Numbered from the stretch's first letter, positions 10,411 to 45,767 are shown. The stretch: DNA of 64,000 bases from an uncultured Pseudobdellovibrionaceae bacterium (GCA_964502735.1 CAZCYD010000007.1:24295-88294), one strand, 5' to 3'. Notes: generated by a model from the letters alone, not told the origin. Numbers and translations: made by a program.

Positions 10411-11646
10411 GTGAGAATAATGCTTAACCCTTCTAAACTCTTTTTTAAATTTGTATTCTTAATTATTTTTGCTTTAGCTTGTCATTTAACTGCAAAAGCT
10501 ACAACTGATGCCAAGGGCATCGAGACTTTATGTGAAAATCTATTGCGAGAAGGGTCTTCTTTAGCCAGTCGGGGAGATGAAGCAAGTATAGAGACCAATT
10601 TTAACAAGTACCTTAAATATTACTCAGAAGCCCTAAATGGTAAAGGCAAAGATTACACTTCAGATCTAATCTTTAAGAGTTTTCAGGTTTGGAGTTCTCA
10701 TTGGCAAGTCATGCAGGATGTGTTCGGATTTAAAATTGGAAATGAAGTCGAAGTTCCTCCTGTAGATCAAATAATCGAAAGTTATAAAAATAAAATGTTA
10801 ATTTATGCTAGAGAAGGAATTATTAATAGTGAAGATATCTTGTTGCCGGCATTTCTTGTTGATGTTGCCGGTGAAAAAATAATTATTCTTTCTCTGCAAG
10901 CTATCCCCAGAGGTGGCACTATTATTTCTGATATTTCAACTGATGATTATAATTTGATGATTTATCAAGGGTATTTTCCAGTTACAGAAACTTTATTTGC
11001 TCATGATTTAGCTCATTTGACGGCTTTTTTGGAAGTTCCTTTGTATATGGCAAATATTAAAAAATTGGCAAGGCAAGCTATTTTAGGAGGACACTTAGAG
11101 TATCCTGCGAGGGCGGCAAGGATTTTTGCAGTGAATGAAAATTTAATTCTTGTTCGTCAAGAGGCAAAACAGCAATTGTTAGCGGATTTGGATTTAGATG
11201 AGAAAATGAGACAGGACTTAGCCCAAGTAAATTTAGAACAAATGATCCAGCACTTAAGCCAAAGGTCTAATTTAGAAATAGAAAAAATTGTGAATCGGCT
11301 GCGCTCAAAATTTTACGAGTATATGCTTCCTCTTGGTGGTGCCTCTCGGGATGGTTATTCTAGTTATTTTGAGGGCTATCATCACAATGGCCCTGTTTTT
11401 AGAATGATTAATGAGTTTGGCAGTTACTCAAGTCGTGACCCTTATCTTCTTCAACTCGCTCGCATACAAGTTGTACTGATTCGTTTGTCGCAAGTGAGCT
11501 TAAATGATTGGTTTGAGGCCATAGATGCCCCGTTTTTAGACAAGAAGTCTCCCCTTGGCAGGCTCTTTTTGGATTATGAGCTTTGGAAAGAATATCCAAG
11601 GTATTTTGAGGTTTTTTCAAATCCTTACTATCAATCAAATTTTTAA
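10411..11646 (+). CDS. Hypothetical secreted protein (no recognisable domain)
   Basis: A long ORF with a signal-peptide-like N-terminus (FKFVFLIIFALACHLTAKA). An alternative ATG lies at 10420. I found no motif I can assign. Confidence 0.6.
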   Translation: MRIMLNPSKLFFKFVFLIIFALACHLTAKATTDAKGIETLCENLLREGSSLASRGDEASIETNFNKYLKYYSEALNGKGKDYTSDLIFKSFQVWSSHWQVMQDVFGFKIGNEVEVPPVDQIIESYKNKMLIYAREGIINSEDILLPAFLVDVAGEKIIILSLQAIPRGGTIISDISTDDYNLMIYQGYFPVTETLFAHDLAHLTAFLEVPLYMANIKKLARQAILGGHLEYPARAARIFAVNENLILVRQEAKQQLLADLDLDEKMRQDLAQVNLEQMIQHLSQRSNLEIEKIVNRLRSKFYEYMLPLGGASRDGYSSYFEGYHHNGPVFRMINEFGSYSSRDPYLLQLARIQVVLIRLSQVSLNDWFEAIDAPFLDKKSPLGRLFLDYELWKEYPRYFEVFSNPYYQSNF

Positions 11647-13849: not shown

Positions 13850-15232
13850 ATGTATCATAAAGGATCTTTAATAAGAATTGTGAGTCTAGGCTTGTTCATT
13901 ATTTACATATTGATCTCCTCTTTGTCAGCTGTGGCTTTGAGTGTTTCTGATATTAAAAGTTCAAAGGAATCTTCGAAATCTCTAGATCGAGTAAAAGAAG
14001 CAGAACAAAAAAAGATTCCACCGATCGTGCAAATCAAAACATCAAAAAAGAAACTGATGTCGAGAAAAATGGGACTCACTTCAAAAATTACTCACAAAAG
14101 ACTAGAGCGAGCCTATAGTTATGTGCGCCGTGAACAGTACAATCCTGCTATTGAAATCTTTGTAGAGCTATTAAAATCAACTCAAGATAGAGTTGAAGAA
14201 AATGCTCAGATTTGGCAGCAGCTGGGTTTTACTCTAGCTCAAAAAGGAGACTACCAAAAAGCGATTGCAGCTTTAAATAAAGCCCTTGATCTCGATGTTC
14301 TTCCTTATGTTCAAACACTCTCATCGCTTTATACTTTGGCTCAAATTCAGAATGCTCAGGAGAACTATTCTAAAGCTTACAAGAATATGTCTTTGTGGTT
14401 TCACTATGCTGATGATCCTTCAGCTGAAGCTTACATACTTATGGGTAATCTTTTGGCTCAACTTGACTATAAAGAGTTGGCTTTAAAATATGTTAACCAG
14501 GCCTTAATTGAGGCTAAAAATCCTCAAGAAAAGTGGTTGCAATTTGCTCTTGCTCTTAATCACGAACTCAACCAACATGAAAACGCTTTAAAAATACTCG
14601 CTGTTTTAACGGCAACATTTCCGAACAATCCCAAGTATTGGAAACAGCTGACATCGACTTACTTAAGTTTAAACGAAGACAAAAAAGCTCTAGCCACTAT
14701 GGAATTAGCTTATAAGCAAGGTTTTTTAGTTGAAGAGGCAGATCTTTTAAACTTGGTGAGTCTTTATGTTTACTTAGATATGCCACAGGCTGCCGTTGAA
14801 ACTCTAGAAAATGAAATGAAAAACTTGAGAATTTCAGACAGTGCGAAAAACTTGGAGTTGTTGTCTCAAGCCTATTACCAATCACGCGATCGGGCCAATT
14901 CTATGGTGGCATTAAATCGTGCTGCACAAAAATCTGCAAATGGTGACTATTTCGCTCGCATAGGTATGATGCACTTAGAGGGTGAAGAATGGACATCTGC
15001 TGTTGATGCGTTTAGTCGCAGTCTAGTCAAAGGAGTAAAAACGCCAGCTAAGGCTTATTGGGGGCTTGCTGTTGCTAAGTATCAGCAAAAAGATCTTCCT
15101 GGAGCTCTCAATACACTGTTAAAGGCAAGGGCACAAAGCATCGAAGATAAAAATGTCGAGCAGCTAATAGACCAAGTTAAAAACGAGTTAGTTCTGGTCA
15201 GTAGGAACGAACTAGTAAAAATAAATCAATAA
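13850..15232 (+). CDS. TPR-repeat protein (TtpD-like accessory protein of TonB2-type systems, tentative)
   Basis: An N-terminal TM/signal segment is followed by multiple TPR-like repeats (e.g. WQQLGFTLAQKGDYQKAIAALNKALDLD). ATG 13850 is preferred over TTG 13835. Confidence 0.7.
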   Translation: MYHKGSLIRIVSLGLFIIYILISSLSAVALSVSDIKSSKESSKSLDRVKEAEQKKIPPIVQIKTSKKKLMSRKMGLTSKITHKRLERAYSYVRREQYNPAIEIFVELLKSTQDRVEENAQIWQQLGFTLAQKGDYQKAIAALNKALDLDVLPYVQTLSSLYTLAQIQNAQENYSKAYKNMSLWFHYADDPSAEAYILMGNLLAQLDYKELALKYVNQALIEAKNPQEKWLQFALALNHELNQHENALKILAVLTATFPNNPKYWKQLTSTYLSLNEDKKALATMELAYKQGFLVEEADLLNLVSLYVYLDMPQAAVETLENEMKNLRISDSAKNLELLSQAYYQSRDRANSMVALNRAAQKSANGDYFARIGMMHLEGEEWTSAVDAFSRSLVKGVKTPAKAYWGLAVAKYQQKDLPGALNTLLKARAQSIEDKNVEQLIDQVKNELVLVSRNELVKINQ

Positions 15233-15267
15233 GTCTCAAGTGGCCACCTTATTTCATTTCTAAAATT

Positions 15268-15696
15268 CTATTGAAGAAGAGCATTACATAGATTTAGATC
15301 TTTGCCTTTATGGATAGCATCAAAAAAGCTAGCTCTAGAAGTATTTAAATTATTTATGACCCTGATATAAGAAGATAAAAAGAGTTTTCGCCTCTGGACG
15401 TTCTCTAACAGTGATATGTAGTATTCTTTTGATTTATAATAGTTGGAGCCCACTTGTGAGGGGTATGTTTGGTCCCAAATCTCTGCAGTTTCGATTTTAT
15501 CTTTGTAATCAGACTCTTGTTGTTGAGCTAGGCTCATTTGCTCATTTATTAATTCAATATTTAATAAATCACTAATTTTTCTACCATCGTGGCCACTATT
15601 TAAAAATTCTTCCACGCTATACACTCGTCCATAGAGGCCTGGGTCAGTAGGGTCAGGAGCCCGAAAATTCGGTTGAACCATGACCCTTAAGGCCAT
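15268..15696 (-). CDS. Hypothetical protein
   Basis: A 142-aa ORF downstream of, and co-oriented with, the hydrolase/lipoprotein pair. It has no recognisable motif. Confidence 0.45.
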   Translation of the reverse strand: MALRVMVQPNFRAPDPTDPGLYGRVYSVEEFLNSGHDGRKISDLLNIELINEQMSLAQQQESDYKDKIETAEIWDQTYPSQVGSNYYKSKEYYISLLENVQRRKLFLSSYIRVINNLNTSRASFFDAIHKGKDLNLCNALLQ

Positions 15697-27876: not shown

Positions 27877-28030
27877 ACACATGTTATACCAATTCAAAAA
27901 AATAATTGTCTAAAATTTAGTGAATACCCCTCATGCTCACACAGCCGCAGCCTTGAGGCTGCGGAACTGCGCGTGAAGGGTATTCACTAAATTTTAGACA
28001 ATTATTTTTTTGAATTGGTATAACATGTGT
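27877..28030 (+). repeat. Long hairpin element, copy 1 (53-nt arms, asymmetric 40-nt core in + orientation)
   Basis: Left arm 27877-27929 is the exact reverse complement of right arm 27978-28030. After one C/A mismatch, tca/tga also pair. The core at 27934-27973 is TGCTCACACAGCCGCAGCCTTGAGGCTGCGGAACTGCGCG. Confidence 0.9.
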
Positions 28031-31690: not shown

Positions 31691-31702
31691 AACGCGTTTT
31701 TG

Positions 31703-31837
31703 TACCAATTCCAAAGAAATAATTGTCTAAAATTTAGTAAATGCCCCTCATGCTCACACATCCGCAGCCTTGAGGCTGCGGAACTGCGCGTGAGGGGCAT
31801 TTACTAAATTTTAGACATTATTTCTTTGGAATTGGTA
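31703..31837 (+). repeat. Long hairpin element, copy 2 (48/47-nt arms with a 1-nt bulge, core in + orientation)
   Basis: Arms 31703-31750 and 31791-31837 are reverse complements except for one extra T in the left arm. The core at 31751-31790 is 39/40 identical to copy 1. Confidence 0.9.
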
Positions 31838-32491
31838 TTAGTAGATGGCTAAAATGAATTCTTTTTTCTGATGACTATACTTTTCTTGTAGTTGTTTTGC
31901 TGATCCTATGTCAAAAGACTCATCGGATTGAGTCAGAGAAGTCGCGAGGATAATTTTTTTAGTAGGTAAATATATTGACAACTCATTTAATGTCTTTTCG
32001 AGTCTGTAGGGTGTATCCATTAAAATAACAGGAATTTTTGTAGCTTTTAACTTTTCAAATTCCTTTTTTCGCAATTCAGAATTAGCGGGAAGAAACCCTT
32101 TAAAGTAAAATTCTGTCAATTTGAGACCTGAGCCACTGAGAAATGCCATTAAGCTTGAAGCACCTGGCACAATAGTAATTTCAATTCCGTGGGATCGGCA
32201 TAAATTAACTAATTCAGCTCCCGGGTCACAAAAGCCTGGCGTTCCGCAATCTGACACGAGAGCTACGGCTTTGGTTTTGCACTCTCCTAGTAGGTACTCC
32301 AGATCTTTCTGATCGGAGTGTTCGTTTAATAGCTCTATAACTTTATATCCGATCTCAAGATCTCTGATGAGACGGCCAACAATTTTTCGTTCCTCGCCAA
32401 TTATTAAGTCAGCTTGTTTTAAGAGTTTTAGGGCCCTGAGGCTAATATCTTCGATGTTTCCTATGGGAGTTGCGATTACGCTTAAAGACAT
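31838..32491 (-). CDS. rsmI: Tetrapyrrole-methylase-fold SAM methyltransferase, RsmI-like (16S rRNA C1402 2'-O-methyltransferase)
   Basis: The N-terminus is VIATPIGNIEDISLRALKLLKQADLIIGEE, and SDCGTPGFCDPG is also present. At 217 aa it is shorter than typical RsmI. Confidence 0.7.
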   Translation of the reverse strand: MSLSVIATPIGNIEDISLRALKLLKQADLIIGEERKIVGRLIRDLEIGYKVIELLNEHSDQKDLEYLLGECKTKAVALVSDCGTPGFCDPGAELVNLCRSHGIEITIVPGASSLMAFLSGSGLKLTEFYFKGFLPANSELRKKEFEKLKATKIPVILMDTPYRLEKTLNELSIYLPTKKIILATSLTQSDESFDIGSAKQLQEKYSHQKKEFILAIY

Positions 32492-33060: not shown

Positions 33061-33197
33061 TATACCAATTCCCAAAAATAATCGTTTAAGATTTTGTGAA
33101 TGCGCCTCACGCGCAGTTCCGCAGCTTCAAGGCTGCGGCTGTATGAGCATGAGGCGCATTCACAAAATCTTAAACGATTATTTTTGGGAATTGGTAT
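33061..33197 (-). repeat. Long hairpin element, copy 3 (48-nt perfect arms, core in - orientation)
   Basis: Arms 33061(33062)-33109 and 33150-33197 pair at 48/48. The core at 33110-33149 is the reverse complement of the copy-1 core (38/40). Confidence 0.9.
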
Positions 33198-33940
33198 CAT
33201 TCATTTTTTTTAAGTAAATAAGATTTTTCCAAAAAAGGCCATAGGGCAAGTGGCTCTGCCTTGCGTGAGTGAACGCTATCCATAAAAACAATCTGAACAT
33301 TTGAAAACTCAGTTTCTACTGCATGAACAATGGCGGGTTCGTTCTCAAATAAATAAATTAAATCATAGGATTTATTCATGGTTCTGATTTTTTCCACTTT
33401 AAAGTTGACGTCATCCATTTTGGGTTTTGGTTTTAATATTAACTCTACATTTTGTAATTCAATGGGAAATTTCCAATGCCTTAAGCTTTCGATTGTTCCT
33501 TGAGCCATACGTATTTGATCTCGACCAGACAAGTATTTCAAATGGGATTGAGTTGTAGAATAGAGTTGATTAACAAAAAATACGGCTCCTTCGTAGGGAA
33601 GATCATACTGCAAATACTCATTGGAAAAAAAGCGTAAAGCCCAAAAGTTCTTTGCATGTTTACTAAAATCATTATTATGAAGATCCACACGATCAAGAGC
33701 GTCCTGTAGCCCCCAGTCGCTATCAAAAACTTGGGTGCTACTAAGTTTTTCAATTTCTTTTGGGTATTTATATTGAGTTTCTGGATCAGAGATCAGTTCA
33801 GAAAAAATATACTTAGTTCTTGGACTAACGTCGTAAAGAGTCGAGTCCAAGTCGAATATACACAAAATTTTACCATCATTTTTACTGTGTATGTGAATAT
33901 CGTCTATTAATTTACTTAAGATTTTATCAAGTTTAAGCAT
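33197..33940 (-). CDS. HAD-superfamily hydrolase-like protein
   Basis: The N-terminal motif is ILCIFDLDSTLYDV (DxDxT). No further assignment is possible. Confidence 0.6.
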   Translation of the reverse strand: MLKLDKILSKLIDDIHIHSKNDGKILCIFDLDSTLYDVSPRTKYIFSELISDPETQYKYPKEIEKLSSTQVFDSDWGLQDALDRVDLHNNDFSKHAKNFWALRFFSNEYLQYDLPYEGAVFFVNQLYSTTQSHLKYLSGRDQIRMAQGTIESLRHWKFPIELQNVELILKPKPKMDDVNFKVEKIRTMNKSYDLIYLFENEPAIVHAVETEFSNVQIVFMDSVHSRKAEPLALWPFLEKSYLLKKNE

Positions 33941-34261: not shown

Positions 34262-35113
34262 ATGAGTTTAGTTAAATATCGAGTATCAGTAGAGGGAAGT
34301 GAACATAGCGAACTTGATCTGAACCAGATAGTCAATAGGTTATTAGAAAAAACACTTTCTCCTACTGATTGCATTTTTGATTCTGAAAATGACGAATGGA
34401 TACCCATCGTTGAAAACGAAGAAGTTATGTCTCACTTTAAATCTGCTGTAAGAAATATGAAAAGCAGTCACAATTCAAATAAGCAGATGTCTTCATCAGA
34501 CGAAGTACAACCAACAGATTTTTCGTCTTTAAAAGATAATCCAATGTTAACTGAGTGGTACATTTTAAAGGGTGAAAATAAATTTGGACCATTTCAGTAT
34601 TCTGAGGTTATTAAAATGTTACAGGAGAAGATTGTATTTGAATTCGACTTTGCTTGGCAAAATGGTATGTCAGCTTGGACTAGGATTGCACAGATTGAAA
34701 ACTTTCGACCCGAGCATATAAAAAAGCTACAGGGCAGTCTTATGCCTGAAATAAAAAATGTTTTTTTTAGAAGAAAGCACCCGCGAATACCTTTTGAGTG
34801 TGAAGTTGTAGTTCATGACAATGTTAATGTTTGGTCGGGAAAAGCTATTGAACTCAGTGAGGGCGGGGCAGGGCTAATCATGGAAAACTCATTGATTCTA
34901 CCTGGGCAAAAGCTCTATATGCACTTTAAGTCTGGAGCTAACTTTCCTGCATTTAATGCAATTTGTGAGGTCGTTAGCAAGAAGTATATGGATGGAGTTA
35001 AGAAAAAAGAAGTTCCAGTTTGTTATGGGGTGAAGTTTACGAGTTTAAGTGAAGAGGCTTTTTCTCATCTGCAGAAGTATACAAAAAGTAATCATGAAAG
35101 GGTTTCGGCTTAG
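34262..35113 (+). CDS. Tandem GYF_2-domain protein with C-terminal PilZ domain (putative c-di-GMP receptor)
   Basis: The GYF_2-like segment is EWYILKGENKFGPFQYSEVIKMLQEKIVFEFDFAWQNGMSAWTRI, with a weaker N-terminal copy. PilZ motifs are RRKHPR (RxxxR) and ELSEGGAG ((D/N)xSxxG with E in the first position). Confidence 0.75.
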   Translation: MSLVKYRVSVEGSEHSELDLNQIVNRLLEKTLSPTDCIFDSENDEWIPIVENEEVMSHFKSAVRNMKSSHNSNKQMSSSDEVQPTDFSSLKDNPMLTEWYILKGENKFGPFQYSEVIKMLQEKIVFEFDFAWQNGMSAWTRIAQIENFRPEHIKKLQGSLMPEIKNVFFRRKHPRIPFECEVVVHDNVNVWSGKAIELSEGGAGLIMENSLILPGQKLYMHFKSGANFPAFNAICEVVSKKYMDGVKKKEVPVCYGVKFTSLSEEAFSHLQKYTKSNHERVSA

Positions 35114-35162
35114 TTAATTGATATATTTGTATTTAATGCCTTTATAAATAAGGGGGAGGCAA

Positions 35163-35882
35163 ATGGAAAATTTAGGAAAACTAATAGTGGATGGAGGCGT
35201 TCCCGCCTATCTAATAGTAACAATGGGGATTGTAGCTCTGGCTTTGATTTTTGAGAGGATCAAGGTTTTATTTTTTGATTATTCAATTAAAACAGAGGCC
35301 TTTATGAACCAGGTTAAAAGTTTGATAATGAATGATCAAGTTGACGATGCGATTACATTTTGCACAGCCAACAAAAGAGCTCCTCTGGCACATGTTGTGA
35401 AGGGAGTTCTGGAAAGATCTGATAGAGATGAGGAGTCTATAAATCAAGGTTTAGATATTTCTCTTGCAGAAATTATTCCCAACTTGGGGAAAAGACTTGG
35501 GTATCTATCTATGATAGCTAACGTCTCCACTTTGATGGGTTTGTTAGGAACAATCACGGGATTGATTATGGCCTTTCAAGCGGTAAGTTTTGCAGATCCT
35601 TCGCAAAAACAAGTTGTCCTTGCCCAGGGTATTTCTATGGCTATGAATACAACAGCCCTTGGTTTATCAGTTGCAATTCCAGTAATGGTAGCCTACGCAT
35701 TTCTTCATACGAGACAAAATAGAATATTAGAAGAAGTTTCGGAGCATTCGGCTAAAGTTGTAGACTTATTGACAACACGACATTACCAACCCTTTTCAGC
35801 TGTAAAAGCCTTTCCAAAGAACTTATCTGAGAAGAAAATGAATGAGATACAGCCGCCAGCTCCAAGCGTAAAGTCTGTTTAA
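35163..35882 (+). CDS. MotA/TolQ/ExbB-family proton channel (AglR-like)
   Basis: A 3-TM protein with STLMGLLGTITGLIMAF and QGISMAMNTTALGL. A GGGGGAGG ribosome-binding site lies upstream. Confidence 0.85.
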   Translation: MENLGKLIVDGGVPAYLIVTMGIVALALIFERIKVLFFDYSIKTEAFMNQVKSLIMNDQVDDAITFCTANKRAPLAHVVKGVLERSDRDEESINQGLDISLAEIIPNLGKRLGYLSMIANVSTLMGLLGTITGLIMAFQAVSFADPSQKQVVLAQGISMAMNTTALGLSVAIPVMVAYAFLHTRQNRILEEVSEHSAKVVDLLTTRHYQPFSAVKAFPKNLSEKKMNEIQPPAPSVKSV

Positions 35883-35895
35883 CGAAGAAGAGGAA

Positions 35896-36462
35896 ATGAG
35901 CATGAGTAAGCGTAGAAATTTAACAATAGAGTCTTCTAAGCAAGAAGAGACAAATATTGATGTGGATTTAGCGCCTATGCTTGCGCTTATGGTTACTCTT
36001 ATTCCGATTATGCTTTTGTCAACAGTATTTGTTAGGATAACTCTAATTGAAACCCCCCTGCCACAAGTCGTTGAAAAAGCTATACAAGAGGATCGTGATA
36101 AAGAACCTAAAGAGGTTCAGGTCGTTGTAACAATGTTTAATCAAGGAATTAAATTCCAAATCATGAGAGATGGGAAAGAACAAAAAGTTGTGAGACTTCC
36201 TAAGAATAATAATCAATGGGATTTAGACGGATTGTATAGTGCAGCCTATCAAACGAAAATGACATACCCCCAGGTTTTCCATGTTGATTTAAAACCTGAT
36301 GTGGATGTTAAGTATGAAGATATTGTCAAAGTGATAGATAAGCTAAGAAAGATTGAGTCTAAAGATAAGAAAGCACAAATTCTAGATAAGGACACGCTTC
36401 AGAAGATAGAAACAGATTTAATGTTTCCCGAAATTAATTTTGCAAATGTGGTGGAGGGTTAA
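35896..36462 (+). CDS. ExbD/TolR-family protein (AglQ/AglS-like), long form
   Basis: It has a single N-terminal TM with an ExbD-like signature (IDVDLAPMLALMVTLIPIMLL) and a periplasmic domain. Confidence 0.75.
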   Translation: MSMSKRRNLTIESSKQEETNIDVDLAPMLALMVTLIPIMLLSTVFVRITLIETPLPQVVEKAIQEDRDKEPKEVQVVVTMFNQGIKFQIMRDGKEQKVVRLPKNNNQWDLDGLYSAAYQTKMTYPQVFHVDLKPDVDVKYEDIVKVIDKLRKIESKDKKAQILDKDTLQKIETDLMFPEINFANVVEG

Positions 36463-36975
36463 ATGAGAAGGGCTGTTGATAAGTTTATCTCTAATAATAA
36501 GAAAACTACATTTGTCTTGCAGTTAACTGCAATGGTCGACATGTTTACAATACTGATAGTCTTTTTATTAAAAAGCTTTTCTACGAGTGCTGTCACAATA
36601 ACTCCACATAAAGATATGGTTTTACCACAATCATCAGCATACGTTGAGCCTATCGAAGCTTTAAAGTTGGTGGTAGCCCTGGATGGGATTTATGTTGATG
36701 ACAGGAAAGTTGTAGATGTGAGCGATGGTAAAATTTCAACTTTAGATCTAGATGCTAATGATAAGGATTTCATCAGAAAATTATATGAAGAATTAGATAA
36801 GCACGCTGTTAAATCAAGGGATATTGCAGGTCAAAATGAGGACATAAAGTTTGATGGTAAAATTGTGATGCAAGCAGATTCCAGATTTGATTATGGTGAA
36901 TTAAAAAAAGTGATGTATACAGCTTCACTTGCAGGATTTGCAGATATGAAATTGGCAACACTATCATTTGAGTAG
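36463..36975 (+). CDS. ExbD/TolR-family protein (AglQ/AglS-like)
   Basis: It has LQLTAMVDMFTILIVFLL and a periplasmic domain. It starts directly after the upstream stop. Confidence 0.8.
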   Translation: MRRAVDKFISNNKKTTFVLQLTAMVDMFTILIVFLLKSFSTSAVTITPHKDMVLPQSSAYVEPIEALKLVVALDGIYVDDRKVVDVSDGKISTLDLDANDKDFIRKLYEELDKHAVKSRDIAGQNEDIKFDGKIVMQADSRFDYGELKKVMYTASLAGFADMKLATLSFE

Positions 36976-39946
36976 GGTAATGGTTATTAGAGCAATTATT
37001 TTTACATTTATCTCTTTATTATTTTTCGGCAACGAAATTGCTGGTGCCCAAGCACATTCTAAAAAAACAGAGGTTTTAGACTCATTGAGACTTAAAGAGG
37101 GAGATGAAGCTCAAAATGATATGAGAGCTCTAAAAACAGAGATGCTTGTAAGTAAAAGTGAAAGTCTAGCAATTCAGCAAGTGCAAAAACTTATTAAAAA
37201 ATATAAAGGCATGGAGGTCGAAGCTGATCTTCAGTTGCGCTTGGCAGAATTGTATATGAGGAAAGCGAAAACGGATCGCTTTTTTGAATTGAATAGAGAA
37301 TCTGATGTAGTTGTAAATCTTGCGCAGAAAAAAATCAGTGGAGCTTCTTCAAAAAAAGCCATCATGGATGCAATTTCTATATATGATTACATTGAAAGAA
37401 AGTTTCCCAAGTACGACAAAATAGATGAAGTCATATTTAATAATGCTTTTGCCAGACAGCAAATAGGTCAAGATAAAGTGGCAGAGGAAAAGTATTGGAG
37501 AGTAATTAATAAATATTCTTACTCATTTTTAGTTCCAGACTCTCACTTGGCGATTGGTGAAATGACATTTAAACAGAGGCGATTTCAACATGCTTTAGAT
37601 CATTTTAATGCTATTAAAAAATATCCAATGTCTCGCGTTTATCCTTATGGCCTGTATAAGGGAGCCTGGACTCTCTACAATTTAAGACAAACTGAATTGG
37701 CAATGAAAGCGCTAGAACAGGTTGTCGAATACGGTAAAAGAGTTGAAGCCGAAGGCTTGGATGTAAGACTCGACTTAAGAAAAGAAGCTCTTACAGATAT
37801 GACTTTATTTTATAGTGAACTCTATCCAGCTAAAAAGGCTTATAGATATTTTATGAGTCAGGCTAAACGAGAGGAAGTTGGAGAACTTCTATTAAAATTA
37901 GCAAGAATTTATGACAGACATAGTCTATATGAAAACAAAGATATAGTATTAAGAGATTATATTTTAGATAATCCTAAGAATATTCTTGTGCCAACGATCT
38001 ATGACCAGCTTGTTTGGAACTACGAAAACATGAAAAATCGAGATAAGGCCATTAAGCAACTTAAAGATTTTTCTCTTATTTGTAAAAAGTCTAGCAAGTG
38101 GTCATCTCATCACCTCGCTTTAAATATGGAAAGTGAGGTTTCAAATTGTAATGAACTTTTTAGGTCAACATCTATTAAATTAGCTCAAAAGTGGTTGCAG
38201 ATATGGGAGAAAAATCTTTCATTTTTTGAATTTGCCGACTCTTCTGAGAGGGCATTTGAATTATATTTAGAGGATAATTCTGATCTAATAAAATCTGATA
38301 AGGCTAGATTCTCACTTGCTCAATTACAGTTCAAACGTGATAAATTTAGATCATCTCTTGAGAATTACGAAAAGGTGGGAAGGTCAACTCAAGATAAAGA
38401 ATTGGGCCATGACTCAAGATATGGAGCTATTGTATCCTTAGAGAAATCAATCGGCAAAGGGAGTTGGAATGATAAAGATGAAAAACACTTACACAGTTTA
38501 GTACAACTCTACATTGAGCATCATCCAGATGGGGTTTATAGGCTAGATATTGAATTCAAATTGGCATTAATTTACTACGACAAGTCAAAGTATGACCTCG
38601 CAGCCCCAATATTCTTGAATTTAGGTGAAAGATTTAAAACCAATGAGAAGGGAATAAAAGCCCAAGATTTATACTTAGATATTTTAAATACAAAAAAAGA
38701 TTTTGTAGGATTACAAAAATATTCAAAGTCGCTCATGGGTAATGGGGCAGATCAATCTCGTAAACAGAAGTTGAACCTCATATATGAGCAGGCCTACTTT
38801 TTAGAAGTCCAGAGTTTTGAGGAAAGAGGAAAGGTTTTAGAGGCGATAACAAAGTACAAAGACTTTGTTGCGGAGAATCCAAAATCAGAATTGGCAGAAA
38901 AGGCAGCTTGGAATGTAATTCAGCTTTATTTTCAGATTATGGACTTTAAAGGTGGTGCTGATGCGTCACATGAATTCGCGCAAAAGTTTCCTAAATCAAA
39001 TAATGCAATACCAGCGCTTTTAAAAGCTGCCCATGCCTACGAAGAACTGGCTGACTTAAAAAAGGTTACTGAAGTTTTATTAAAGCTAAGTCAAGTAGAT
39101 AAAGATAATCACCTAAAATGGAAAAATCTTTCTGCAGATTTCTTTTATATACAAGGAACAATTACTGTTGCTGAAAATATATATAGACAAGTCTATCAGG
39201 AGAGGGACGGTAAACATAGCCAGTATGCCCTCGTGCAAATGGAAAAAATTCAAAACAAAAGTGGATCATCGGAGCATTTAAACTTACTTCAAAAACTAAT
39301 TAAGGAAAACATTCAACCAGAAGCTAGTCATGCTCAGTTATTTTTGGTTGAAAAACTTTGGCAAGAGAAAAAGTCTCAAGAAGCTTTTTCTGAAGCCATG
39401 AAATTACTAAACATGAATAAAGAGGCCTCTCAATACGCAAAGGCTAAAGCAAGATTTATTCAAGCTCAAATTTTGGATGAAGAGTTTGACCGTCAGAGCG
39501 TTAAATCGCAAATTGACAGATTTACAACTGTATTTGCCATTAAAACAGAAAAGTTAGAGAAGGCACAGCAGGCGTATCAATCTGCCATTAGATATGGAGA
39601 TCCTAAAGTTGCCGTGCAAGCCCTGGTTCATCTTTCTAAACTGTATGAGAAATATGTAAAAACATTAAAGCAGATGCCAATTCCTGGAGGTCTGCCAGAG
39701 TCTGAGGTTGCGTCGTTTAAATTAGAAATGGAAAAGCTTGCGATGCCAATGGAAGAAAAGGGTGTGGACACAATGGCTGAAGCCTTGTCTCAAGCCAAAA
39801 GGTTAAAGTTCAGAGATGGAACAATTGCTAAAGTCCAAGTTGAACTCGATAGATTAAATATGATTAATAATAAGACTGAGGTTTTACCTCTGGTACCTCC
39901 ACGGATATTGCTGCCAAAATATTTTAAGAAGGTTGTAGGAAGATGA
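36968..39946 (+). CDS. Large TPR-repeat envelope protein (GltD-like, tentative)
   Basis: A 992-aa protein with a signal peptide (IFTFISLLFFGNEIAGAQA) and TPR/helical repeats throughout. The TTG start overlaps the upstream gene; an alternative ATG lies at 36980. Confidence 0.6.
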   Translation: MSRVMVIRAIIFTFISLLFFGNEIAGAQAHSKKTEVLDSLRLKEGDEAQNDMRALKTEMLVSKSESLAIQQVQKLIKKYKGMEVEADLQLRLAELYMRKAKTDRFFELNRESDVVVNLAQKKISGASSKKAIMDAISIYDYIERKFPKYDKIDEVIFNNAFARQQIGQDKVAEEKYWRVINKYSYSFLVPDSHLAIGEMTFKQRRFQHALDHFNAIKKYPMSRVYPYGLYKGAWTLYNLRQTELAMKALEQVVEYGKRVEAEGLDVRLDLRKEALTDMTLFYSELYPAKKAYRYFMSQAKREEVGELLLKLARIYDRHSLYENKDIVLRDYILDNPKNILVPTIYDQLVWNYENMKNRDKAIKQLKDFSLICKKSSKWSSHHLALNMESEVSNCNELFRSTSIKLAQKWLQIWEKNLSFFEFADSSERAFELYLEDNSDLIKSDKARFSLAQLQFKRDKFRSSLENYEKVGRSTQDKELGHDSRYGAIVSLEKSIGKGSWNDKDEKHLHSLVQLYIEHHPDGVYRLDIEFKLALIYYDKSKYDLAAPIFLNLGERFKTNEKGIKAQDLYLDILNTKKDFVGLQKYSKSLMGNGADQSRKQKLNLIYEQAYFLEVQSFEERGKVLEAITKYKDFVAENPKSELAEKAAWNVIQLYFQIMDFKGGADASHEFAQKFPKSNNAIPALLKAAHAYEELADLKKVTEVLLKLSQVDKDNHLKWKNLSADFFYIQGTITVAENIYRQVYQERDGKHSQYALVQMEKIQNKSGSSEHLNLLQKLIKENIQPEASHAQLFLVEKLWQEKKSQEAFSEAMKLLNMNKEASQYAKAKARFIQAQILDEEFDRQSVKSQIDRFTTVFAIKTEKLEKAQQAYQSAIRYGDPKVAVQALVHLSKLYEKYVKTLKQMPIPGGLPESEVASFKLEMEKLAMPMEEKGVDTMAEALSQAKRLKFRDGTIAKVQVELDRLNMINNKTEVLPLVPPRILLPKYFKKVVGR

Positions 39947-40752
39947 TAAGGATAGGATTGACCATTATTGTATTCTCCTCTTTGCTTGGATGTTCCTCTA
40001 AGGTTAAAAATAACAATGATCAGTTGAGATCAGATTTATCTAAGCCCTATACAGTCGATGTTGTTGCTCAACCTCAAATAGATGATAAAAATACCTTATC
40101 TGGCTCATGCCCATCTAAGTTAAAAGACATTGACGGAGTGGATTGGACAAAACTTTTGGGATTTGCCAATGCTTGCATTCGAAGAGGCAACTGGAACATG
40201 GTTGAGGCCATAGGTAATAAATTGGCTGTAGATACGAGTCACTCACCTTGGGGGCCATACTACTTGAGTCTTGTTGCGGAGAGGCATAGAAATATGCCGA
40301 AGGCCTTATGGATGATTGATTTGGCAATCAAGAGGTCCCCAAACGTAGGGATTTTGACTTATAACAAGGCGAGGCTTTTATGGAAGATGGATTTGTTTGA
40401 GGAAAGTGTTTCCTACTTTGAAAAATCAATATTGCTCAAAGTAAATGTTTTAGAAGCTCATTATTTTTTAGGTAAAATATATTTACGTGATCAAGATCTC
40501 AACTCTGCAAAGAGTCAATTTGAAATTTCGCTAAAATATAACCCCCAACATTTTGATTCTTTGTTAGAAATTGCAAAAATTTATAGCCTAAAAGGTGATG
40601 TCGGCAACGAGATGATTTTTTTAGAAAGAGCAAGAAAAGTAAAGCCAAGTGACAAATGGATAAAACAAAGGCTTTCACTTTTAATAAGTCAGAATTCTCC
40701 ACGGGACCCGGCTTCAGAAGAAGCTAACTCCAGTCAAGGAGGTAAACAATGA
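39943..40752 (+). CDS. TPR-repeat lipoprotein (GltE-like, tentative)
   Basis: It has the lipobox IVFSSLLGC, TPR repeats and a 4-nt overlap with the upstream gene. Confidence 0.55.
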   Translation: MIRIGLTIIVFSSLLGCSSKVKNNNDQLRSDLSKPYTVDVVAQPQIDDKNTLSGSCPSKLKDIDGVDWTKLLGFANACIRRGNWNMVEAIGNKLAVDTSHSPWGPYYLSLVAERHRNMPKALWMIDLAIKRSPNVGILTYNKARLLWKMDLFEESVSYFEKSILLKVNVLEAHYFLGKIYLRDQDLNSAKSQFEISLKYNPQHFDSLLEIAKIYSLKGDVGNEMIFLERARKVKPSDKWIKQRLSLLISQNSPRDPASEEANSSQGGKQ

Positions 40753-40988
40753 AGTATTTAATTATTTTATTTGGATTGCTACTAGTTGATTTTTCGTATG
40801 CAGATAAAAAGGTCATCTATAAAAAAACACAAGAAGTCAACTTTGACGAAGCTAATATTGATGGAGAGGTGAGGTCTCCAGATGGATCTTATTTACATCA
40901 AAAGAGGGGTATGAAGTTCCTTCCCTTGTACAAGGTTAGAAAAACTTTTGACAACAGCATCAAAGAATCTGTGGAGTTCTTGAGGTAA
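40749..40988 (+). CDS. Small secreted protein (GltF-like by position, tentative)
   Basis: A 79-aa protein with signal peptide MKYLIILFGLLLVDFSYA. It is translationally coupled on both sides. Confidence 0.45.
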   Translation: MKYLIILFGLLLVDFSYADKKVIYKKTQEVNFDEANIDGEVRSPDGSYLHQKRGMKFLPLYKVRKTFDNSIKESVEFLR

Positions 40989-40990
40989 GT

Positions 40991-42502
40991 ATGAAAAGAG
41001 TCGAAGTTGAAGTCGAGCATTATTTTCAGAAAAAGTTTGTTGGTCGCAAGCGAATATTGCCCAGTGAACAGATAACGATTATTGGCCAAACCAAAGAATG
41101 TGGACTTCGGCTTCTAGGCGATGGTGTTTCTAATGTACATGCTTGTATAGAATTTTATAACGACCAATGGGTTGTTGCTGATCTTGGTAGCGAGCAAGGG
41201 ACGTGGGTTAGAAAGAAGGCTATTGTCTCCCATGTTATTAATAGCTCTACCTCTGTAAATATCGGACAGCATGAGCTTAAAATATTTCCTAAAGTTATAG
41301 AATCTCATTTGTTTACTGAAGAGACGTCAGTAAATCAGAATCGTATTGATATTCAAAATGTTGGAACATTAAATAGATATCACCAAGTGATTCTGAAAAA
41401 GAATTCGTTTGTTGTGGAGTCTAAATTGTTGCCCGTAAATGAGCCTTTTGTTTATTATCAGGGCTTAAAAAAACATAATCTTCTGCCTCCCAAAGGCGAT
41501 GAGTGGAAGACTGAGAACTTTGGTGATGTTACAATTCAGCAGAGAATTGTTTGTTCATCTGTAGTTGAGGAGTCCAGTGCCGAGAAGGTGGCTGTTATAT
41601 GGGATCCAAATTTAAAAGGTCCTTTAGCGTTAGCTTTAGTCTTACTTTTAATTCTTACGAGTATATTTATTTTACACCCGGGTAGTTTTAATTCTGAAAT
41701 GGAAGAGCTTAAGCCTGAAACCGATAATAAGTATACAAGAATGATTTTTGATGCGAATGCCATTAGAAAAAAACGTGAACAGGCCAAGCAGGTTAGGAAC
41801 TCGATGTCCACTCGAAGCACTAATATGGCAGCGCCTCAAATGTCTAAGGAGCTTAAAGTTACAAAGAGCGAGAGCCAATCCAGTTCAAAAGTAGTCAATA
41901 AAATTAAGTCAGCTGAACTTAGTCAGTTAATAGGTAAAATTTCTAAACGGGCATCTCACAATGCCCAATTTATAAAAGCTGTTGGAGCTACGCCTGACGG
42001 AAACAGTACGGCAAGAGTTTTAGCTACGGTCGGAAATGAGGCTAGCAAGTTAAATGCAAATAAAAATGGTAACTTTAAAGTTGATGGAGTAAAGACGGCT
42101 GGAAAAGCTGGAGGATCAAACTCTTACAAGAAAATAGGTGGACTGGCTTTAGGCAATGTGGGGACGGCCACAGTAGGTGTATTGGATGAAGAGACAGAAG
42201 TAGAAGGAGGTCTTGATAAAGATCTTATTGCTAGAGTTATCGAGAAAAATTTAGGTCAGATACGATACTGCTACGAAAGACAGTTAAGTGCCAACCCAGA
42301 CCTTTATGGAAAGGTACTTGTTAAGTTTACAATAGGTGGAGATGGAGCTGTTAAAGCTCAAAATATAGGATCAACAACTTTAAAGAGCGCCATGGTCGAG
42401 GGATGTATTTTGCGGCGTGTATCAGGGTGGATGTTTCCGCAACCAAAAGGTGGAACGCACGTCCTGGTCACTTACCCATTTCTGTTTAAAAGCACAAACT
42501 AG
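40991..42502 (+). CDS. FHA domain - TM - AgmX/PglI (TonB_C-like) C-terminal domain protein (GltG-like)
   Basis: The N-terminal FHA-like region is ITIIGQTKECGLRLLGDGVSNVHACIEFYNDQWVVADLGSEQGTWV...IGQHELKIF. One TM follows (LALALVLLLILTSIFIL). The C-terminus is IRYCYERQLSANPDLYGKVLVKFTIGGDGAV...GCILRRVSGWMFPQPKGG. Confidence 0.7.
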   Translation: MKRVEVEVEHYFQKKFVGRKRILPSEQITIIGQTKECGLRLLGDGVSNVHACIEFYNDQWVVADLGSEQGTWVRKKAIVSHVINSSTSVNIGQHELKIFPKVIESHLFTEETSVNQNRIDIQNVGTLNRYHQVILKKNSFVVESKLLPVNEPFVYYQGLKKHNLLPPKGDEWKTENFGDVTIQQRIVCSSVVEESSAEKVAVIWDPNLKGPLALALVLLLILTSIFILHPGSFNSEMEELKPETDNKYTRMIFDANAIRKKREQAKQVRNSMSTRSTNMAAPQMSKELKVTKSESQSSSKVVNKIKSAELSQLIGKISKRASHNAQFIKAVGATPDGNSTARVLATVGNEASKLNANKNGNFKVDGVKTAGKAGGSNSYKKIGGLALGNVGTATVGVLDEETEVEGGLDKDLIARVIEKNLGQIRYCYERQLSANPDLYGKVLVKFTIGGDGAVKAQNIGSTTLKSAMVEGCILRRVSGWMFPQPKGGTHVLVTYPFLFKSTN

Positions 42503-42535
42503 TCTTGAAACAGAAGTGGCCCTGAGGGGGGCGAA

Positions 42536-43330
42536 ATGAAAAAAATTAACATCTTAGTCTATGTCGGCTTCTGTATGCTTTACACCCAATGGGGTGAAGC
42601 TCAAAGTACTCAGTACCAGCGGCCAACAAAAAATGTGGTGAACAAAGCTGCTCCTGAAAAAAAGACAGGTAAGGAAGACTACAAGGTTGATATTACCGAC
42701 ATTGAGCAAAAGTATTGGGCCCCTAAGGATACTGACTTCAGTGTAGTTCAAAGTCGAGCTTACACAAAGGCCAATAGATTCTCATTAACTGTACAGGGTG
42801 GAAGTCTAATTAATGACACTTTTAATAAGGGGAGTTTGTTTGCTGTATCTAGTAACTATTTTTTAAGTGAGAGGCATGGTTTTGGGTTGAGTTATGTTTC
42901 AGGAGATTTAGGAAACACAAAAGTCATCGACAACTTTAGATATCAAGTGGGAGGCGGAGCCGCTGGTACTGAGCCCGATCGAGGAAGATTAAAGCATTAC
43001 TATGGAATAAATTATGTATGGGTACCCATTTATGCAAAAATGAGTCTCCTAGAGAAAAAAATACTATATTTTGATATGGCTATTTCTCCAAGTATTGGAA
43101 TGACTAGCTACAACAAACTTACAGACTTCAAGGATATTCCTGAGTCTGCCTTAACCTTTGGATTAGATGTTTCTCAGTACTTCTATTTAAATAAAAATTG
43201 GGCCATTAGAGCTGATTTAAAAAATAATTGGTACAACGAAAAAAGAGTTACATTTAAAACGGGTGAATCTATTTCAACTCAATCCAATAATACGACCATG
43301 TTTTTGTTAGGTTTTATTTATTATCATTAA
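42536..43330 (+). CDS. Outer-membrane beta-barrel protein (GltA/GltB-type, tentative)
   Basis: It has a signal peptide, alternating beta-strand pattern and a C-terminal MFLLGFIYYH. Confidence 0.6.
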   Translation: MKKINILVYVGFCMLYTQWGEAQSTQYQRPTKNVVNKAAPEKKTGKEDYKVDITDIEQKYWAPKDTDFSVVQSRAYTKANRFSLTVQGGSLINDTFNKGSLFAVSSNYFLSERHGFGLSYVSGDLGNTKVIDNFRYQVGGGAAGTEPDRGRLKHYYGINYVWVPIYAKMSLLEKKILYFDMAISPSIGMTSYNKLTDFKDIPESALTFGLDVSQYFYLNKNWAIRADLKNNWYNEKRVTFKTGESISTQSNNTTMFLLGFIYYH

Positions 43331-43340
43331 GAGGTGTATT

Positions 43341-45767
43341 GTGCTTTTTAAATATACTATTGTTTTTATAATCCTCTCGATTATAGGTGTAGGGGCACAG
43401 GCTCGTCTTTTAGAAGATATTGTTGCAACCTCCGTTAGCAAGAAAGAGGTCAAAGAAGAGACTTTGCAAGATAAAGTTAAAGATGGATTTAATGATATCA
43501 AAAAAACCTTTAATACTTGGGTGCGAAAATTAAAGCCCAAGTCAGCAGAAGAGTTAGCTACAGAGAAAAGAGTTCAAGCTGAAATTAATCGACAAAAAAG
43601 AGTTCAAGAACAGTTACAAGAAAGGACAGAGGCCTTACCAGACTATAAAAGTCAGGAAAAAGGAAACTTTAAGAGTTATGTTGACTCGACTGTTGAGAAG
43701 GTTGGCAGTGCAGATCCTCTTGTCGAGGTAAGCAGAGGAATAAGCTCAGACCCAAGTCTACCAAAAACTAAAGTGGGGGTACCTTATTTTACAGTAGGTA
43801 AAATTGAAGCTTTGCCTAAGCTGAATGTGGGGTTGGAGCCAACGATTAGTTCTAAAAATTTTGATCTAGATAATTTTTTATTGGGGTTAGACAAATACAA
43901 GATGGCTAAGCCACTTAGGGGACCTGAAAAGGTTAGTATGCGAGAGATAGAAAGATGGACGAGCAAAAAAATAATTTCTATTACTGAAGAAAAGAAGTTA
44001 CAAAGAAAAGATTTTGATATTCGTGAAGTTGTAACCGAGGAAAAAATACAAAAGCTAACAATTAACCCAGTCGTCACAGTCGATGACTACAAGCCTTATA
44101 AGAAGTTTACTAAGAGAGAGCTAAAGATGATTGCTGCACTCATCCTTAATAGAAAGGGTGATAAATGCCACCTAGTTGTGGGACTTTTTGATGATTTATC
44201 TAAACATAAAAAATATCAAAAGGAGGCTGATTATCATCTTGGAGTCTGTTCCATAGAAATGGGTTTTCACTCAGAGTCGGTGAAAAGATTACTTCCTCTT
44301 GTGAAAATGGAGGATAAGGAATACGCGCAAAAATCATTGGCAGCCCTTGCAAAACAACTACCTAGAGAGTTTGAAGTTTTATTTTATGACACAATACGCG
44401 GATTAAAGGCTCCGGACTTGATTGCTTACTCCAAAAACAGTGAAGTGGCTTATTTAGCTGCGAAAGGGGCCTATAAAAAAGGTCACTATGGTGCCGCAAT
44501 TAGATATGCAGAACTTGTTAAGCTGGATTCGAAACTGTTTCCTTCATCTCAGTTTATACTGGCAACAAGTTATTATCTTCAGAAGAACGCAAAGTTGGCA
44601 GTGCAGATATACCAAAACTTAGAAAAACTTCTAGAAAACTCAAGCGATGAAAATTTAAAAACTCTTGTAGCTATAAATTTAGCAAGAATTTCATTTCAGT
44701 CTGATCAATATAAAAAGGCACTGGAATATTATAGAACAGTCAAAAAGAACCATCCATTATGGGTTCAGGGGCTTATAGAACAAGGATGGGCTCAAATTAT
44801 GATAGGTGATTATCCTGGTGCTATAGGGAATATGTATTCTCTGCATTCTCCATACTTTAAGTCTGTTTATATGCCAGACTCCTGGGCGGTGAGGACAATT
44901 GGTTATCTGAATATTTGTCAGTATGGAGACGCTTACAGTTCATTGACAAAACTTGAAAATCAATACGGGCAGTGGTTAAAAAATGTTGATGGCTACGTTA
45001 AGAAAAATAAACTGAGCAAAGATTACTACTACACTATTACAAATTACCTAAAAGGGAAATCAGATCAAGATCAATCCGGACTTCCTTATCAGGTTATTCG
45101 TGAGATGGCGAGACAACGTGAGTATTTAAATTATCAAGACTCTATCAACTTAAAGGTCGACGAACTTGCACAGTACGATTTTATTAAGGGACTGATAGAT
45201 AAGGATATTGTGGGAATGAACTGGAGGATATCAAAAGCCAAGACTCGTATAGAAAAACTATCCGGAGATATTGCAAAGGCTCAACAAGATAAATCAATGA
45301 TGAAAAATTTAACTGAGTGGAAACAACAGTTGGGCTTTGAAAGAGATTTAATTAAAAAACTTAACTTCCAATTGGCGGCTTATAAACAAGGGCAAAAAAG
45401 TTTTAAAAATTTAAATAACTATGCAAATAAACGAATTAGTAAGGAGATATATTCTCTGCGGGAGAAGGCTGGTGGTTCTCTTGTTGGGAGTTTAAAAAAT
45501 ATTCAAATTGAGATCGCAAAAGTACTCGAAAATAACGAGTTCCTACGATACGAAGTATTTGCCGGGAGCGGTGAGAATATTAGGTATCAGGTAGCTGGTG
45601 GAGAGGCTAGGCAAGGGCGGGTTATTGCAAGCACTCCTCCACCTAAGTCACTGAAATGGGAATTTGAAGGGGAGTATTGGGAAGATGAGATTGGTTCTTA
45701 TCGATCAACATTAAAAAATAATTGTCCGGACGCAAGAGCAAGTGCTTCGATCAATGGAGGAAAGTAA
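43341..45767 (+). CDS. Large secreted TPR/helical-repeat protein (GltC-like, tentative)
   Basis: An 808-aa protein whose GTG start follows a GAGG ribosome-binding site. It has signal peptide IVFIILSIIGVGAQA, a TPR-like central region and a coiled-coil C-terminal part. Confidence 0.55.
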   Translation: MLFKYTIVFIILSIIGVGAQARLLEDIVATSVSKKEVKEETLQDKVKDGFNDIKKTFNTWVRKLKPKSAEELATEKRVQAEINRQKRVQEQLQERTEALPDYKSQEKGNFKSYVDSTVEKVGSADPLVEVSRGISSDPSLPKTKVGVPYFTVGKIEALPKLNVGLEPTISSKNFDLDNFLLGLDKYKMAKPLRGPEKVSMREIERWTSKKIISITEEKKLQRKDFDIREVVTEEKIQKLTINPVVTVDDYKPYKKFTKRELKMIAALILNRKGDKCHLVVGLFDDLSKHKKYQKEADYHLGVCSIEMGFHSESVKRLLPLVKMEDKEYAQKSLAALAKQLPREFEVLFYDTIRGLKAPDLIAYSKNSEVAYLAAKGAYKKGHYGAAIRYAELVKLDSKLFPSSQFILATSYYLQKNAKLAVQIYQNLEKLLENSSDENLKTLVAINLARISFQSDQYKKALEYYRTVKKNHPLWVQGLIEQGWAQIMIGDYPGAIGNMYSLHSPYFKSVYMPDSWAVRTIGYLNICQYGDAYSSLTKLENQYGQWLKNVDGYVKKNKLSKDYYYTITNYLKGKSDQDQSGLPYQVIREMARQREYLNYQDSINLKVDELAQYDFIKGLIDKDIVGMNWRISKAKTRIEKLSGDIAKAQQDKSMMKNLTEWKQQLGFERDLIKKLNFQLAAYKQGQKSFKNLNNYANKRISKEIYSLREKAGGSLVGSLKNIQIEIAKVLENNEFLRYEVFAGSGENIRYQVAGGEARQGRVIASTPPPKSLKWEFEGEYWEDEIGSYRSTLKNNCPDARASASINGGK

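Follow-up and report, generated by a model that had tools for sequence, protein, structure and literature searches.

The DNA examined here is a stretch of 64,000 nucleotides (nt) from the draft assembly of an uncultured Pseudobdellovibrionaceae bacterium (GCA_964502735.1, CAZCYD010000007.1:24295-88294; "the window" below means the whole of that stretch), in which four copies of a long palindromic element, here called c1 to c4, lie between genes. The window encodes Glt-type gliding, Tol/Exb and TonB components, and its host is Bdellovibrionales-like: the nearest relatives of its RsmI protein belong to metagenome-assembled genomes (MAGs) labelled Bdellovibrionaceae or Bdellovibrionales, at only 64% identity, and no relatives were confirmed through PurH. 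Palindromic repeats such as the REP/REPIN, ERIC and Correia elements are common in bacteria, and for few of them are movement and hairpin persistence understood. The family described here gives a clean signal: perfect stems of 50 bp have diverged at up to about a third of their positions, on both sides, while the asymmetric centre has stayed frozen. We hypothesize, with about even confidence, that c1 to c4 are copies of a lineage-specific, non-autonomous palindromic mobile repeat, that is, a hairpin-type, REPIN-like MITE (miniature inverted-repeat transposable element).

Genomic placement of the elements

The copies and the parts of c1 are as follows.

27877-28030, + strand: copy c1, whole palindrome of 154 nt; the part shared by the family is 27886-28021, with TA at both ends
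27934-27973, + strand: conserved core of c1, TGCTCACACAGCCGCAGCCTTGAGGCTGCGGAACTGCGCG, with the inner 8-bp GC hairpin at 27945-27964
27877-27885, + strand: outward extension of the palindrome present in c1 only, ACACATGTT; partner at 28022-28030, then GGATTTTGTTT
31703-31837, + strand: copy c2, 135 nt; core at 31751-31790
33061-33197, - strand: copy c3; hairpin at 33062-33197, core at 33110-33149
62317-62456, - strand: copy c4, 140 nt; core at 62367-62406

Reading the window sequence bore out the coordinates and strands that the initial annotation had given to all four copies. A degenerate pattern of the 40-nt core matched exactly four times in the 64-kb window, against none expected (100 shuffles), and no further full or partial copies, solo arms or solo cores were found in the window by nhmmer at maximum sensitivity, short-word blastn or a covariance model. 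A scan of the 64 kb for perfect stems (18 bp or longer, with loops up to 90 nt) matched only c1 to c4, which a general inverted-repeat finder ranked far above everything else in the window.

The positions of open reading frames (ORFs) agree with the claim that c1 to c4 are intergenic and sit at gene 3' ends. c1 lies 18 nt past the purH stop (27858), and the next gene starts 170 nt further (28200). c2 fills the spacer towards which the yhaM-like gene (stop 31690) and rsmI (stop codon at 31838-31840) converge; c3 lies between a convergent Nudix gene (stop 33048) and an ORF of 247 amino acids (aa) whose TGA (33197-33199) touches the element; and c4 lies between convergent ORFs of 572 aa (stop 62294) and 455 aa, the TAA stop of the latter (62453-62455) falling inside the hairpin's terminal TTAA. 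These three spacers measure 147-158 nt from stop codon to stop codon and the elements in them 135-140 nt, with stop-codon contact at one end: TAA directly followed by TA at c2, TGA directly followed by TA at c3, and TAA within TTAACCC at c4. By our count six of the ~50 gene junctions in the window are convergent, and three of the six hold an element, an occupancy with p of about 0.006 for four random placements among ~50 junctions. When the element and one TA are removed, the spacer comes to 14 nt (c2) or ~15 nt (c3), a scale that resembles the 8 nt found in a relative (below). Such placement could reflect insertion events at TA within short AT-rich spacers, or the survival of those copies alone that disrupt no promoter; either behaviour is typical of bacterial MITE-like repeats (PMC10969869).

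Core orientation is two to two under a uniformly positive GC skew, and four copies give an orientation test no power. The skew is positive in every 2-kb bin of the window (1-64000) and ~80% of the genes lie on the + strand, which places the whole window on one replichore's leading strand. A perfect 12-nt palindrome, AAAACGCGTTTT (31691-31702), separates the stop codon of the yhaM-like gene from the left TA of c2 and may be what is left of a 3'-end hairpin that this gene originally had.

Architecture of the hairpin

From end to end the element reads TA, an arm of 46-50 bp, an apical module, the complementary arm and TA, and TA...TA bounds all five copies, the fifth of which is described below. 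The arms pair as annotated: in c1, 53 perfect bp are followed by a C/A mismatch and three more pairs; c2 is perfect save for a 1-nt deletion in the right arm; and c3 and c4 pair at 48 of 48 and 50 of 50 positions, respectively. Watson-Crick pairs make up 154 of the 155 arm pairs of c1, c3 and c4 together, and none is G:T. Folded as single-stranded DNA (ssDNA), the copies reach -62 to -72 kcal/mol (z = -17 to -18), as good a value being given by none of 200 shuffles. The termini vary between copies (TA-CCAATTC, TA-ACCCAAATC, TA-TGCCCATTTC) and the centre is nearly invariant. The GC content of the elements is 36-45%, that of the window 38%.

The apical module consists of an invariant CCTCA/TGAGG clamp, a 6-bp segment with two fixed mismatches, and an internal loop of 5 nt on one side and 3 nt on the other (CACAG / AAC) around the 8-bp GC hairpin CCGCAGCC-TTGA-GGCTGCGG. 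The initial annotation had called the 40-nt core non-palindromic, which does not hold: according to the inverted-repeat finder the arms run on into the core as a quasi-palindrome, TGCTCA facing CGCGCA, and the two mismatches there are the same in all copies, with only 28 nt left between the extended arms. The whole element is a quasi-palindrome centred on the TTGA loop, with its asymmetries fixed; some of those at the apex are A/G transitions. At 27932-27955, and at the equivalent place in the other cores, the sequence also reads as a mini-ORF of seven codons and a stop (ATG CTC ACA CAG CCG CAG CCT TGA, MLTQPQP). A functional role was rejected: the variants between copies are non-synonymous and the ATG lies inside the stem, and the reading frame is probably a coincidence.

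In c1 the palindrome continues, perfectly paired, for ~10 bp beyond the family ends, which has a chance probability of ~1e-6 and is not seen in c2 to c4. Either a terminator-like palindrome was there first and c1 inserted into its loop, or template switching expanded the inverted repeat in place (PMC13100816), ~10 bp of pairing into unique flank being the expected footprint of such expansion.

Mirrored divergence of the arms around a conserved apex

Alignment of the left arms with the reverse-complemented right arms yielded 16 variable substitution columns and a 1-nt insertion in c2 (an extra G relative to c1, in both arms), and every one of these is mirrored in the partner arm, as had been claimed. 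c4 shows a mirrored length difference besides, which makes at least two mirrored indels overall, and only two arm changes are one-sided, the C/A mismatch of c1 and the deletion of c2. The 16 mirrored substitutions comprise eight transitions and eight transversions, including flips of A:T to T:A and of C:G to G:C. RNAalifold counted 16 of 61 pairs as changed on both sides; a structure-fitted alignment, with 99.5% of its cells paired, gave 19 of 53 long-helix pairs, a number reached in none of 500 shuffles and compared with at most two in slid-partner controls. Since the structure-fitted alignment leans towards structure, we take 16-19 as the range of mirrored pairs.

The arms of c1 differ from those of c4 at 8, and from those of c3 at 6, of the 33 core-proximal positions, both figures standing up to a recount, and over their whole length the arms of the copies are 75-92% identical, with identical arm/core junctions. 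Private mirrored changes number two in c1, two in c2, three in c3 and eight, the length change among them, in c4, the most diverged copy, and three more split c1/c2 from c3/c4; by our reading, mirrored changes lie on all five branches of the ((c1,c2),(c3,c4)) tree. That each copy has mirrored changes of its own indicates that the process acted repeatedly, not once.

The core, whose copies had been put at 38-39 of 40 identical positions, comes out at 37-39 of 40 when recounted. It is variable at 4 of 40 columns, as against 17 of 49 in the arms (Fisher p = 0.011), and its inner 8-bp hairpin shows two uncompensated changes, a G>A of c3 at the loop-closing pair (C.A) and a C>T of c4 (G.T). While the core mismatches stayed identical, divergence in the arms went as far as 25-35%, or between a quarter and a third of their positions, and it is the apex, not the termini, whose sequence is constrained. 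Drift with kept pairing around a conserved centre, as proposed in the initial annotation, is hereby confirmed quantitatively and is extended by the fifth copy. A function of the structure is not thereby established, and neutral homogenisation of the arms by template switching can give the same stem pattern.

A fifth copy outside the window

One reading frame is open across c3 and c4, and translated copies were compared with a collection of 5.8 billion proteins. A single protein, P0121 (74 aa), matched. The NCBI contig that encodes it measures 26,774 bp, and the proteins of the window belong to one of 94,735 bp; we infer that the two contigs are parts of a single draft assembly. When its peptides were solved backwards for any DNA encoding both arms as a perfect palindrome with the geometry of c3, exactly one palindromic arm resulted, TGCCCATTTCAAAAAAATAATCGTCTAAAATTTTGTGAATGCGCCTCA, in which only the third position of the core-adjacent Ser codon is left free. 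This arm has TA on both sides and ~8 differences from c3, some of them new and near the terminus. As an indirect and demanding test, P0121 would extend the mirrored-arm pattern to a copy outside the window. An exhaustive HMMER search of 1.84 billion representatives turned up no further real translated copy. One candidate was rejected (P0125, 860 aa, ~10 tandem units, 49 bits): it looks like a tandem repeat in translation, possibly eukaryotic, and is unrelated.

Relatives, databases and read archives

One locus of a relative (L010, from GCA_020435005.1) is syntenic with the window, the common order being mlaE, ABC, mlaD, purH, TPR, yhaM-like, rsmI, Nudix, phosphatase-like, PilZ and exbB/D. It covers the sites orthologous to those of c1, c2 and c3, and none of the three holds an element. 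At the c3 site 8 nt separate the Nudix gene from the phosphatase-like gene convergent with it; at the c2 site a gene of 156 aa occupies the yhaM-rsmI spacer; and at the c1 site a gene of 221 aa follows purH. These extra small genes (10646-11116 and 14917-15582 of the locus, respectively) have no Pfam hit. Two of the three element-bearing spacers are hot spots of change in both lineages. Within ~90 kb from relatives (L005-L011), neither nhmmer nor the hairpin scan nor the covariance model found a related element.

Plasmids and phages gave no blastn match to the element, and the core strings were not found in the published literature. The initial annotation had recognised no named non-coding RNA family in the repeat, which agrees with Rfam: there was no match in the window at gathering thresholds, and E-value mode returned only generic miRNA-precursor and hairpin matches, whose 18-36 bits fall far short of the gathering scores (49-135). 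To judge from these comparisons, the family would be confined to a poorly sampled lineage and would have been gained after the split from the lineage of L010.

Three SRA runs, SRR31093301, SRR9016295 and SRR15327643, carry the same strain (at least 99.9% identical), with the elements fixed, and the single-base differences between their contigs and the window lie in genes, none in the elements. Seven Logan contigs (L001-L004 and L012-L014) break inside or just past the conserved core or within an arm, and one Logan contig of 29,179 bp spans exactly c3 to c4. Contig ends can be used as a proxy for element positions. The repeats fragment short-read assemblies at the cores, which matters for the assembly of MAGs from this lineage.

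A proposed non-autonomous mobile hairpin

The best reading of the family is as a non-autonomous mobile hairpin element, given that its copies are dispersed, end in TA and are missing from the orthologous sites. The initial annotation had set the copies apart from decaying MITE terminal repeats, and in their arms they are indeed unlike these; the TA...TA ends, the dispersal and the element-free orthologous sites are nevertheless MITE-like. We suggest that the element spreads, or once spread, by insertion at TA dinucleotides, and that a trans-acting protein would read the asymmetric apex on a folded single strand, the apex giving an otherwise symmetric hairpin its direction. Such a protein might be a transposase, or a hairpin-binding enzyme of the HUH/Y1 or another type, and is not encoded in the window. 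The arms would need only to pair, and may be kept complementary by a process at the DNA level in which one arm templates the other, whether through quasipalindrome template switching at replication or through repair or resynthesis within a hairpin intermediate whenever the element transposes. A by-product would be that read-through transcription of the flanking genes yields RNAs ending in a hairpin of ~50 perfect bp, which by analogy with Correia and ERIC elements could act as a 3'-end barrier or as an RNase III substrate. MITE transcripts do form hairpins that are processed by RNases (PMC10969869), and any RNA-level effects on the flanking genes are likely to be side effects.

Several features of the stems speak less for a selected RNA than for a cause at the DNA level, be it a structure in ssDNA or the copying of one arm from the other: the absence of G:T or G:U from ~200 arm pairs, the half share of transversions, the mirrored indels and the palindrome of c1 that runs 10 bp into the flank. 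Stems with Watson-Crick pairs only, together with mirrored transversions and indels on every branch, point to copying of arm from arm, or else to a need for both strands to fold, and not to stepwise compensation at the RNA level through wobble intermediates. Quasipalindrome template switching is an established process that homogenises and perfects the arms of inverted repeats, expands and lengthens them and can invert the spacer (PMC7202029, PMC5941160, PMC8604942, PMC13100816), and the family offers a natural test case for it on an evolutionary timescale. The process that perfected the arms left the two core mismatches and the internal loop in place, which argues that the apex is under constraint; we infer from this pattern that the apex is the predicted recognition module for a trans-acting protein and gives the element its polarity. 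The contrast separates a part that need only pair from a part that is read, and so marks out a candidate binding site for a hairpin-recognising enzyme in the Bdellovibrionota.

A more specific form of the mobile hairpin, to which we assign a low probability, is that the unit which transposes or replicates amounts to one arm and the asymmetric apex, the second arm being made in each round by fold-back, self-templated copying. It would be a chromosomal analogue of the "flip/flop" termini of rolling-hairpin replication, with an enzyme reading the apex. If true, it would explain why the arms are perfect at birth, why indels are mirrored, why the apex gives direction and why so few mismatches have arisen after insertion.

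A number of observations weigh against a mobile hairpin element. The TA at the ends is itself palindromic, and a target duplication cannot be told apart from conserved termini. The termini vary more than the centre, which is the opposite of classical MITEs that depend on terminal inverted repeats (TIRs). The window has no transposase, integrase or reverse transcriptase among its ~50 ORFs of at least 100 aa, as the initial annotation had noted, nor was a hairpin-binding enzyme identified in it. The family counts no more than five known copies, the fifth of which was deduced from its peptide. Patterns of the core, taken as two halves with variable positions as N, had no exact match in 185,579 GTDB species representatives (3' half only), JGI metagenomes or IMG/VR viral contigs. 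The data carry no sign of current mobility, and neither presence/absence nor arm polymorphism is visible in the contigs of the three SRA runs. Finally, the types of change seen in the arms do not separate selection for a foldable strand from automatic copying of the arms.

Alternative explanations

The alternative that survives best, possible though unlikely in our judgement, is that the host selects a structured RNA, a bidirectional terminator, insulator, 3'-end stabiliser or RNase III site in 3' untranslated regions, with a conserved apical loop as the binding site for a protein or a second RNA; selection on RNA pairing would then account for the covariation of the arms. Every copy is found at a gene 3' end, with a gene that reads into it in the core-sense direction within 0-25 nt; known MITEs, once transcribed, behave in this way (PMC10969869). 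The invariant T.G (U.G in RNA) next to the CCTCA (CCUCA) clamp pairs on the sense strand only, the inner-hairpin change of c4 is compatible with G.U, and the sense strand folds 2-8 kcal/mol better in three of the four copies. The strand evidence is ambiguous, however, because on the antisense strand CGCGCAG can pair with CTGTGTG through G.T or G.U equally well, and neither strand is clearly favoured. Against a selected RNA stand the lack of a single G:U in ~155-200 arm pairs, the mirroring of transversions and indels, and the perfection of a 50-bp stem, which goes far beyond the needs of RNA function. The copies have no consistent U-tract, and a promoter and terminator scan of the window, whose counts were not above shuffled expectation, found no terminator-like site at any element. 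No Rfam family covers them, and the orthologous 3' ends of the syntenic relative do without an element.

It is decidedly unlikely that the copies are neutral palindromes that lack both a function and a dedicated enzyme, an old repeat dispersed through unspecific duplication or recombination and kept perfect in its arms by template switching alone, with cores that are similar through recent ancestry or gene conversion. Inverted repeats are known to be perfected, lengthened and even inverted by template switching (PMC5941160, PMC8604942, PMC13100816), the extension of c1 into its flank fits such a process, and no cognate enzyme was found in the window. Yet the same process should have erased the core mismatches and the 5/3-nt loop, which are identical in all copies, and the core varies less than the arms (p = 0.011); nor would unspecific duplication be expected to give five copies with precise TA...TA boundaries or to place elements at stop codons.

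That the 40-nt core moves by itself as a very small unit, inserting into the centres of pre-existing palindromes so that the arms are its target, seems very unlikely. It would resemble insertion sequences that target REP loops, or the small dispersed repeats of cyanobacteria reportedly described by Elhai et al. in 2008. The core is far more conserved than the arms, and c1 looks like an insertion into the middle of a terminator-like palindrome. The arms are, however, homologous over their full length (75-92% identical) with identical junctions, and the window holds neither an arm-only palindrome nor a core-only copy.

The recombination sites of integrons (attC), which as folded single strands mark gene cassettes, are an extremely improbable model. 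The elements share with them a folded ssDNA substrate, a fitting size range (135-154 nt), a position at gene 3' ends, a structure conserved more than the sequence of the arms, and an asymmetric unpaired centre that could give strand choice. The flanking genes, on the other hand, are housekeeping genes (purH, yhaM-like, rsmI, Nudix), syntenic with the relative and in mixed orientation, and there is no integrase in the window. The R''/R' consensus of attC sites is RYYYAAC/GTTRRRY, which the GTATAAC and GTTATAC ends did not fit when compared by eye; attC sites moreover have conserved ends and a variable centre, the reverse of the arrangement here, and stand in cassette arrays of one orientation beside intI.

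Three further candidates were rejected. A retron msd has no reverse transcriptase to go with it; for invertons the spacer is too short, and Logan unitigs cross the core in one orientation; and the PATE derived from IS200/IS605 has differing, imperfect subterminal hairpins and no long inverted repeat, where the elements here have one long inverted repeat and a single central hairpin. PATE copies derived from IS200/IS605 show a strand bias towards the lagging-strand template.

Comparison with known palindromic repeats

In logic the closest known system is that of the REPINs, which RAYT transposases mobilise. Like them, the elements are short, non-autonomous intergenic repeats that form a long hairpin in ssDNA or RNA and have no transposase inside. 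Compensatory changes on both sides of the hairpin are common in REPINs (PMC3116915), and they are found here in the 19 of 53 stem pairs changed on both sides. REPINs have two inverted REP sequences of 16-25 nt conserved at their ends around a variable central spacer, whereas the family here has a single central module: one GC-rich palindrome stands at the centre, and the ends are AT-rich and variable. No GTAG or CGTC tag, of the kind described in PMC3733652, was seen by eye beside the GC hairpin, and the window has no gene for a RAYT (a Y1 HUH protein), which in REPIN systems usually has REPs on its flanks. It is on the terminal REPs that membership breaks down.

Correia elements have TA target duplications, and the elements here likewise have TA at both ends. 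Correia/NEMIS and ERIC repeats resemble the family further as AT-rich, intergenic palindromic repeats of 100-200 bp, often at gene 3' ends, whose transcripts form long hairpins processed by RNase III or RNase E (PMC10969869). Correia and ERIC repeats differ from the family in that their terminal inverted repeats are conserved and their palindromy is imperfect; in the elements here conservation lies in the centre and is lowest at the termini, and the stems of ~50 bp are near-perfect. The elements showed no sequence similarity to anything in the collections searched (GTDB representatives, JGI metagenomes, plasmids and phages). With classical TIR MITEs the elements (135-154 nt) have in common that they are small, AT-rich, non-coding, multi-copy and intergenic, but it is the centre that is conserved here and not the recognised ends. 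The family is best filed as a variant within the palindromic intergenic repeats of bacteria, not as a member of a named family.

Two comparisons concern the way in which the arms are kept alike. Quasipalindrome correction, as in the Ripley model and in E. coli, explains the perfect arms, the mirrored transversions and indels, the growth of c1 and a possible flipping of the spacer; being a mutational process only, it leaves the dispersal, the TA bounds and the fixed core mismatches unexplained. The inverted terminal repeat (ITR) of adeno-associated virus, a parvovirus, is a hairpin of ~145 nt; its perfect stem is long, its asymmetric apex holds small internal palindromes and occurs in two orientations, and replication renews one arm from the other. 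The likeness to the elements is only one of how they may work: parvovirus ITRs are the ends of a linear animal ssDNA virus with a Rep nickase and have two apical hairpins, whereas the elements are chromosomal, internal and bacterial, have one, and give no sign of replication through them as termini.

Other features of the window

A cluster at 34262-46396 resembles the gliding-motility and Tol-like machinery of Bdellovibrio and myxobacteria. It encodes a PilZ-GYF protein, ExbB, two ExbD, a TPR/YbgF-like protein of 992 aa, a GltG/AgmX-like FHA protein and a GltC-like protein, and its upstream part, through the FHA protein, is syntenic in L010. The longest ORFs of two divergent genes, one for an MMPL/RND-type transporter (57557-60646, - strand) and one for the 572-aa protein without Pfam hits (60576-62294, + strand), overlap by 71 nt at their 5' ends; the transporter product in Logan has 1005 aa, not 1029, so its start probably lies further downstream. 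Just upstream of the start of the 455-aa ORF is an unrelated, imperfect inverted repeat (63861-63922), with arms of 23 nt that are 87% complementary and a spacer of 16 nt, to which the covariance model gave its single hit besides the four copies, a weak one (E = 0.25).

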